Below, in pieces: positions 575 to 3,712 of a stretch of DNA of 64,000 nt. The DNA is from Shigella phage sb1. The position numbers were made by a program, and so were the translations under genes. Location: sequence record PQ666539. The stretch is one strand, 5' to 3'. Numbering within the stretch: position 1 is the first letter of the stretch; every line of letters starts with the position of its first letter. The notes under the pieces were generated by a model. That model saw nothing but the letters and a program-made list of their open reading frames with translations. It had not been told where the DNA came from and searched no databases.

Positions 575-3712
<3,138 letters not shown>

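Follow-up and report, generated by a model that had tools for sequence, protein, structure and literature searches.

An ATT codon at the conserved start of gene 15 in a T4-like phage sequence and a window-wide excess of G:C>T:A substitutions

In the sequence record of Shigella phage sb1 (PQ666539), the codon at the conserved start position of gene 15, which encodes the tail sheath stabiliser, or tail terminator, gp15, is ATT. The question raised by this locus is whether the phage has lost the gene 15 start codon, whether it initiates translation of this gene at AUU, or whether the ATT belongs to the written sequence and not to the phage. The first two readings were those offered in the preliminary description of this DNA. 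Here, we analyzed the gene 15 locus together with the whole stretch of 64,000 nucleotides in which it lies (referred to below as the window).

Gene 15 and its start site

The window begins among the late genes of a T4-like phage, with the end of gene 14 followed by genes 15, 16, 17, and 18, and gene 15 is flanked by the neck gene 14 and the small terminase gene 16. According to its translation, the frame that runs from 575 ends at the stop codon 1391-1393. Residues 1 to 272 of the product align with residues 1 to 272 of the experimentally solved T4 gp15 (PDB 3j2m/4hud; E=8e-182), and the two proteins are colinear over their full length, with isoleucine replacing Met1. The product also matches the Pfam family PF16724 with a score of 322.5 bits, the membership threshold being the Pfam gathering score of 25 bits, and residues 4 to 257 cover profile positions 1 to 243 of 245. 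The identity of the gene proposed in the preliminary description was therefore borne out by all 272 residues of T4 gp15.

Direct reading of the + strand confirmed that positions 575-577 are ATT where T4 has ATG. An alignment with T4 and KNP5 revealed a single difference between the window and KNP5 in 161 bp, a G>T change at 577 that converts ATG into ATT. The Shine-Dalgarno sequence previously described upstream of this codon, AGGAG, is present and is found at a functional spacing of 5 nt, although at the coordinates given in Table 1 and not at 564-568. The first 16 codons had been read as coding for the N terminus of T4 gp15, and this reading stands, with the 15 codons after the ATT matching T4 gp15 residues 2 to 16. 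Further upstream, the frame is closed by an in-frame stop codon at 548-550, and direct reading found no in-frame ATG, GTG, or TTG between this stop and 575. The record as written therefore has no canonical ATG at the conserved gp15 start. A gene caller would begin gene 15 at the TTG-ATG pair listed in Table 1, dropping 16 conserved residues; no Shine-Dalgarno-like sequence was found by direct reading ahead of either codon of this pair.

Table 1. Positions in the window of the features discussed in the text (~, approximate)
Feature	Position	Strand	Remarks
Shine-Dalgarno sequence of gene 15	565..569	+	AGGAG; 5-nt spacer before 575; identical in T4 and KNP5
Gene 15 (tail sheath stabiliser/tail terminator gp15)	575..1393	+	272 codons plus stop
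First canonical in-frame starts in gene 15	620..625	+	TTG 620, ATG 623 (Met17)
Private G:C>T:A changes in gene 15	577; 1004; 1021; 1243		Start; H>N (H144N); M>I (M149I); L>F (L223F)
Private G>A change in gene 15	704		
Gene 16 (small terminase), codon 153	1858..1860	+	GAA to TAA; private G>T; truncation
Gene 17 (large terminase), codon 366	2975..2977	+	GGA to TGA; private G>T
Gene 17, codon 528	3461..3463	+	GAA to TAA; private G>T; second in-frame stop
Insertion versus T4 between genes 18 and 19	~5725-6380		~650 bp
Gene 23 (major capsid), codon 274	11617..11619	+	TTA to TAA; ORFs of 273 and 238 aa
Mobile-element gaps versus T4	~12374-12432; 17494-17514; 45779-45977; 46455-46511; 49628-49665		
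Gene 26' internal AUU start	20914..20916	-	T4 RefSeq annotation NP_813811
Extra DNA versus T4 beside alt	~27944-29635		~1.7 kb
cd.2 start	39750..39752	-	ATG>ATT; C>A on + strand; ATG in three relatives
Gene 34 start	55607..55609	+	CTG; ATG in four relatives
G:C>T:A excess	1..64000		246 private changes in 56,638 strictly comparable columns

Alignments of gp15 begin at residue 1 in homologues down to 26 to 30% identity, including those of cyanophages and of a Campylobacter phage, and therefore the N-terminal 16 residues represent conserved coding sequence. Likewise, all annotated relatives start gene 15 at the codon corresponding to 575, and no homologue was seen to begin at the residue equivalent to the methionine at 623, the observation that would have spoken against an upstream start.

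To place the ATT among related sequences, the start codon was inspected directly in nine relatives (T4, KNP5, Ec_YwIITB1, sb2, pSs-1, and four IMG/VR contigs), and all nine have ATG. The best phage record was 96.8% identical to the window over 25 kb. Among 498 matching T4-like phage records, the 63-mer with ATT had no exact match. The 63-mer with ATG was found exactly in 448 records and its T4-background version in 16 more (464 of 498 in total), and the T4-background 63-mer with ATT matched none of the 498. A 34-mer containing the ATT was not found in IMG/VR, in GTDB genomes (one per species), or in JGI metagenomes, and no public assembly was found to contain the exact 256-aa product that would start at Met17. 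An AUU at the gene 15 start is thus not conserved among the relatives, and because the ATT occurs in no other sequence, AUU initiation of this gene is unsupported.

Private G:C>T:A substitutions across the window

In gene 17, two codons that are GGA and GAA in T4 are in-frame stops in the window. Since both stops result from G>T changes, as does the ATG>ATT change of gene 15, substitutions were compared across the whole 64 kb. For this, T4, Ec_YwIITB1, sb2, and pSs-1 were projected onto the window, and a substitution was considered private if the focal genome departs from a base shared by all four relatives. The window has 673 private substitutions, and 246 of them (37%) are G:C>T:A changes, divided into 125 C>A and 121 G>T. 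When each relative was taken as the focal genome, the G:C>T:A share was 5% for T4 (72/1367), 7% for Ec_YwIITB1 (34/462), 14% for sb2 (39/277), and 5% for pSs-1 (20/379). Under a relaxed criterion, with at least three relatives aligned, 278 of the 834 private changes of the window were G:C>T:A, in 63,941 columns. The possibility that the errors lie in the relatives was rejected, as the base at every private site is shared by four independent genomes, and 464 records have the same start codon in gene 15.

The substitutions are strand-symmetric, with rates of 1.21% per G and 1.20% per C, and their rate is similar across all 4-kb bins. No effect of trinucleotide context on the G:C>T:A changes was detected (chi-square over 16 contexts, p=0.24); the rate was 1.0% in CGG and 0.31% in GGC, compared with 1.2% overall. 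No private frameshift indels were found in the window, and the eight shared "indels" were mostly compensating insertion/deletion pairs or intergenic. Within gene 15, four private G:C>T:A changes were identified, all non-synonymous, one of them being the change at 577, and a private G>A was also present (Table 1). For any single site, 577 included, a natural origin is expected in about 10% of private G:C>T:A changes, although natural changes are mostly synonymous.

Some public relatives also look imperfect. Shigella phage sb2, in which the share of G:C>T:A given above is mildly raised, has both its tail sheath gene and gene 34 annotated as split, and in Ec_YwIITB1 the same is true of the major capsid and hoc genes.

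Several larger differences were observed in the window. Relative to T4, the window contains an insertion between genes 18 and 19, at which pSs-1 and Ec_YwIITB1 are annotated with a hypothetical protein of 205 aa and sb2 with a shorter ORF; the pSs-1 copy of this protein had no Pfam match. Beside alt, the window again has extra DNA, and there the annotations of pSs-1, sb2, and Ec_YwIITB1 list two Alt-like ADP-ribosyltransferase genes in tandem; T4 instead has alt and the alt.-1/alt.-2 remnants. When the window was aligned with T4, nothing corresponded to the T4 segments that hold certain mobile elements, namely, segD, segE, the nrdB intron with I-TevIII, mobE, and the td intron with I-TevI. These elements appear to be absent from the window, which is part of the usual variation among T-even phages.

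Coding effects of the substitutions

The coding effects of the private changes were judged in the reading frames of the pSs-1 annotation. The G:C>T:A changes comprise 186 missense, 29 nonsense, 18 synonymous, 1 start-loss, 0 stop-loss, and 12 intergenic changes, and are distributed as 97/84/53 over codon positions 1/2/3. The other private changes, which appear to have been under selection, comprise 107 missense, 1 nonsense, 299 synonymous, 1 start-loss, 1 stop-loss, and 18 intergenic changes, distributed as 68/44/297. The proportions of synonymous and non-synonymous changes thus differ strongly between G:C>T:A and the other classes (Fisher p=4e-64). Only the G:C>T:A class is abnormal, transitions and other transversions being rich in synonymous changes, as they are in the four control genomes.

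An unselected expectation was obtained by enumerating all G>T and C>A changes that conserved coding G/C sites allow and scaling the result to 234 events. This gave 190.9 missense, 28.6 nonsense, and 13.4 synonymous changes and 1.0 start hits, and the observed values were 186, 29, 18, and 1. Hence, the G:C>T:A changes match mutation without any selection. At 1.2% per G, 0.87 ATG>ATT changes are expected among 72 start codons, with a probability of 0.58 of at least one; the ATG>ATT change of gene 15 is exactly what the background noise predicts. Two further start codons of the window, those of cd.2 and gene 34, also depart from the ATG of relatives (Table 1).

The window contains 29 in-frame nonsense codons that result from G:C>T:A changes and 1 that results from T>A. 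Stops are located in genes 16, 17 (two), 22 (two), 23, 27 (two), 29, 48, 51, and 32, and further stops lie in genes 34 (four), 35, and 36, in uvsY, nrdA (two), rnlA (three), and alc (two), and in others; in addition to the positions in Table 1, a stop lies at 10043. The breaks in the affected genes were confirmed by mechanical ORF lists, in which gene 34, for example, is split by its four in-frame stops and retains three ORFs of at least 100 aa. Reassignment or suppression of a stop codon was rejected, as TAA, TGA, and TAG all occur in frame, at positions where the relatives have GAA, GAG, GGA, TCA, TAC, or TTA codons. The written sequence is non-viable, since stops interrupt the genes for terminase, the major capsid protein, the scaffold, the baseplate, gp32, and the tail fibres; neither DNA packaging nor assembly of the head, baseplate, or tail fibres would be possible.

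Origin of the substitutions and comparison with known systems

The substitutions described above are private and unselected and all belong to a single type, and from this pattern we infer that they originated outside phage replication. The reading that we favor, with a probability of about 0.93, is that the T at 577 is one of approximately 250 non-biological G:C>T:A substitutions and that the phage itself has ATG. The window would then be a genuine and distinct T4-like (Tequatrovirus) genome segment, overlaid with some 220 to 250 extra G:C>T:A changes that affect about 1.2% of G:C pairs, on both strands equally. These extra changes would be spread evenly along the 64 kb, regardless of codon position or gene, and one extra G>T would have struck the third base of the gene 15 start codon. 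In the underlying phage this codon is almost certainly ATG, and a normal 272-residue gp15 would be made. The absence of the gene 15 ATG from the record is accordingly attributed to sequence noise, and the ATT is a data-quality artefact, neither an unusual start codon nor a real feature. Of the two possibilities offered in the preliminary description, loss of the start codon is literally true of the written sequence; read biologically, as a gene-specific loss or as AUU initiation, both miss the cause, the G>T at 577 being part of the window-wide, unselected G:C>T:A changes.

As for the source of the noise, the changes may derive from guanine oxidation, or from another G>T-type error, that entered a consensus for which there was too little independent support; alternatively, the record may have been corrupted. 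A truly damaged single molecule is the least likely of the candidate sources. It should be noted that random errors fixed at 1.2% of G:C sites in a contiguous 64-kb assembly are unusual, which counts against an artefact. The DNA of T-even phages is modified, and miscalling of modified bases was considered for this reason. However, nanopore or modified-base (glucosyl-hydroxymethylcytosine) miscalling is unlikely given that the changes are accompanied by no private frameshift or homopolymer indels and depend on no sequence context.

The changes could instead be true mutations of the sequenced DNA molecule or molecules, in which case gene 15 would indeed lack a start codon, or its translation would restart at Met17, in a genome that is not viable. 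Variants of this reading include a heavily oxidised or mutagenised particle and a hypermutated genome recovered by single-molecule or single-virus amplification. The strand symmetry and uniformity of the changes, their fixation in the sequence, the lack of indel errors, and the lack of the context preference known from the classical shearing artefact are all consistent with a real start loss of this kind. Nevertheless, a genome with stops in the genes listed above cannot replicate and could not have expanded clonally before its assembly, and a single-molecule workflow, of which there is no evidence, would be needed. We therefore regard a real loss in a dead genome as improbable. More doubtful still is its specific form in which the window represents a T4-like genome that was hypermutated and killed through an oxidative or guanine-targeting insult from the host or the environment and then captured by single-molecule or single-virus sequencing. 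Whether the genome was dead or the changes are an artefact, the change in gene 15 is functionally meaningless.

A genuine AUU start was also weighed. The intact Shine-Dalgarno sequence and its spacing would permit fMet initiation, at reduced efficiency, and initiation at AUU is mechanistically possible in E. coli, where pcnB, like infC, initiates at this codon. T4 itself provides an example in the internal start of gene 26', which is ATT in five of five genomes (T4, the window, Ec_YwIITB1, sb2, and pSs-1). In E. coli extracts, AUU can initiate at a substantial fraction of AUG levels, and infC, which uses AUU in this species, starts with AUU or AUC across bacteria (PMC5499595). Functional AUU starts are conserved, however, whereas the gene 15 ATT is unique to the window; moreover, the change at 577 fits the type and the rate of the unselected noise, and 30 nonsense codons, with essential genes among those hit, make individual bases of this sequence untrustworthy. 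AUU initiation of gene 15 is, in our view, very improbable. The weakest reading, a functional 256-residue gp15 translated from the ATG at 623 (or from the TTG at 620) after loss of the upstream ATG, can draw on the in-frame pair and the 256- or 257-aa ORF that follows it, but it is scarcely credible given that neither codon is preceded by a Shine-Dalgarno-like sequence, that the exact shorter product is in no public assembly and no relative is annotated with a short form, and that residues 1 to 16 are conserved down to the cyanophage and Campylobacter phage homologues, are present in the deposited chains of the T4 gp15 structures that have been solved, and have been placed inside the Pfam domain (the PF16724 match starting at residue 4).

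With the ATT taken as noise in the record, nothing in these data speaks for AUU initiation of gene 15 or for a gene 15 without a start. For quality control, single-base oddities in the window are to be weighed against the 1.2% of G:C pairs that read T:A, and other findings in the window that rest on G>T or C>A differences deserve the same discount. Gene calls on the window are also badly fragmented, with the terminase, major capsid, gp34, and other genes split.

G>T and C>A are the changes produced by 8-oxoguanine. The artefact caused by 8-oxoG during shearing is characterized by a preference for the CCG>CAG context, low allele fractions, and a read-orientation bias (Costello et al. 2013, PMC3616734). 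As in that artefact, the excess in the window is confined to C>A/G>T, and it bears no imprint of selection. Unlike in that artefact, there is no enrichment of CCG>CAG (CGG>CTG) in the window, and the changes sit in the final consensus sequence. The classical shearing signature was therefore rejected as it stands, the type of change fitting and the context not. For the reading as a hypermutated genome, the likeness would be to APOBEC-hypermutated retroviral genomes.

Gene 15 of the window shares with gene 15 of T4 its neighbours, genes 14 and 16, its 272-codon frame, and its Shine-Dalgarno sequence, and over residues 1 to 272 the two products show about 97% identity; the window gene differs in the ATT at codon 1 and in the private H144N, M149I, and L223F changes. 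As with infC, pcnB, and T4 gene 26', the AUU of gene 15 lies at a proper distance downstream of a Shine-Dalgarno sequence. In contrast to T4 gene 26' and infC, whose start codons are conserved as AUU and as AUU or AUC, respectively, the ATT of gene 15 is a singleton.
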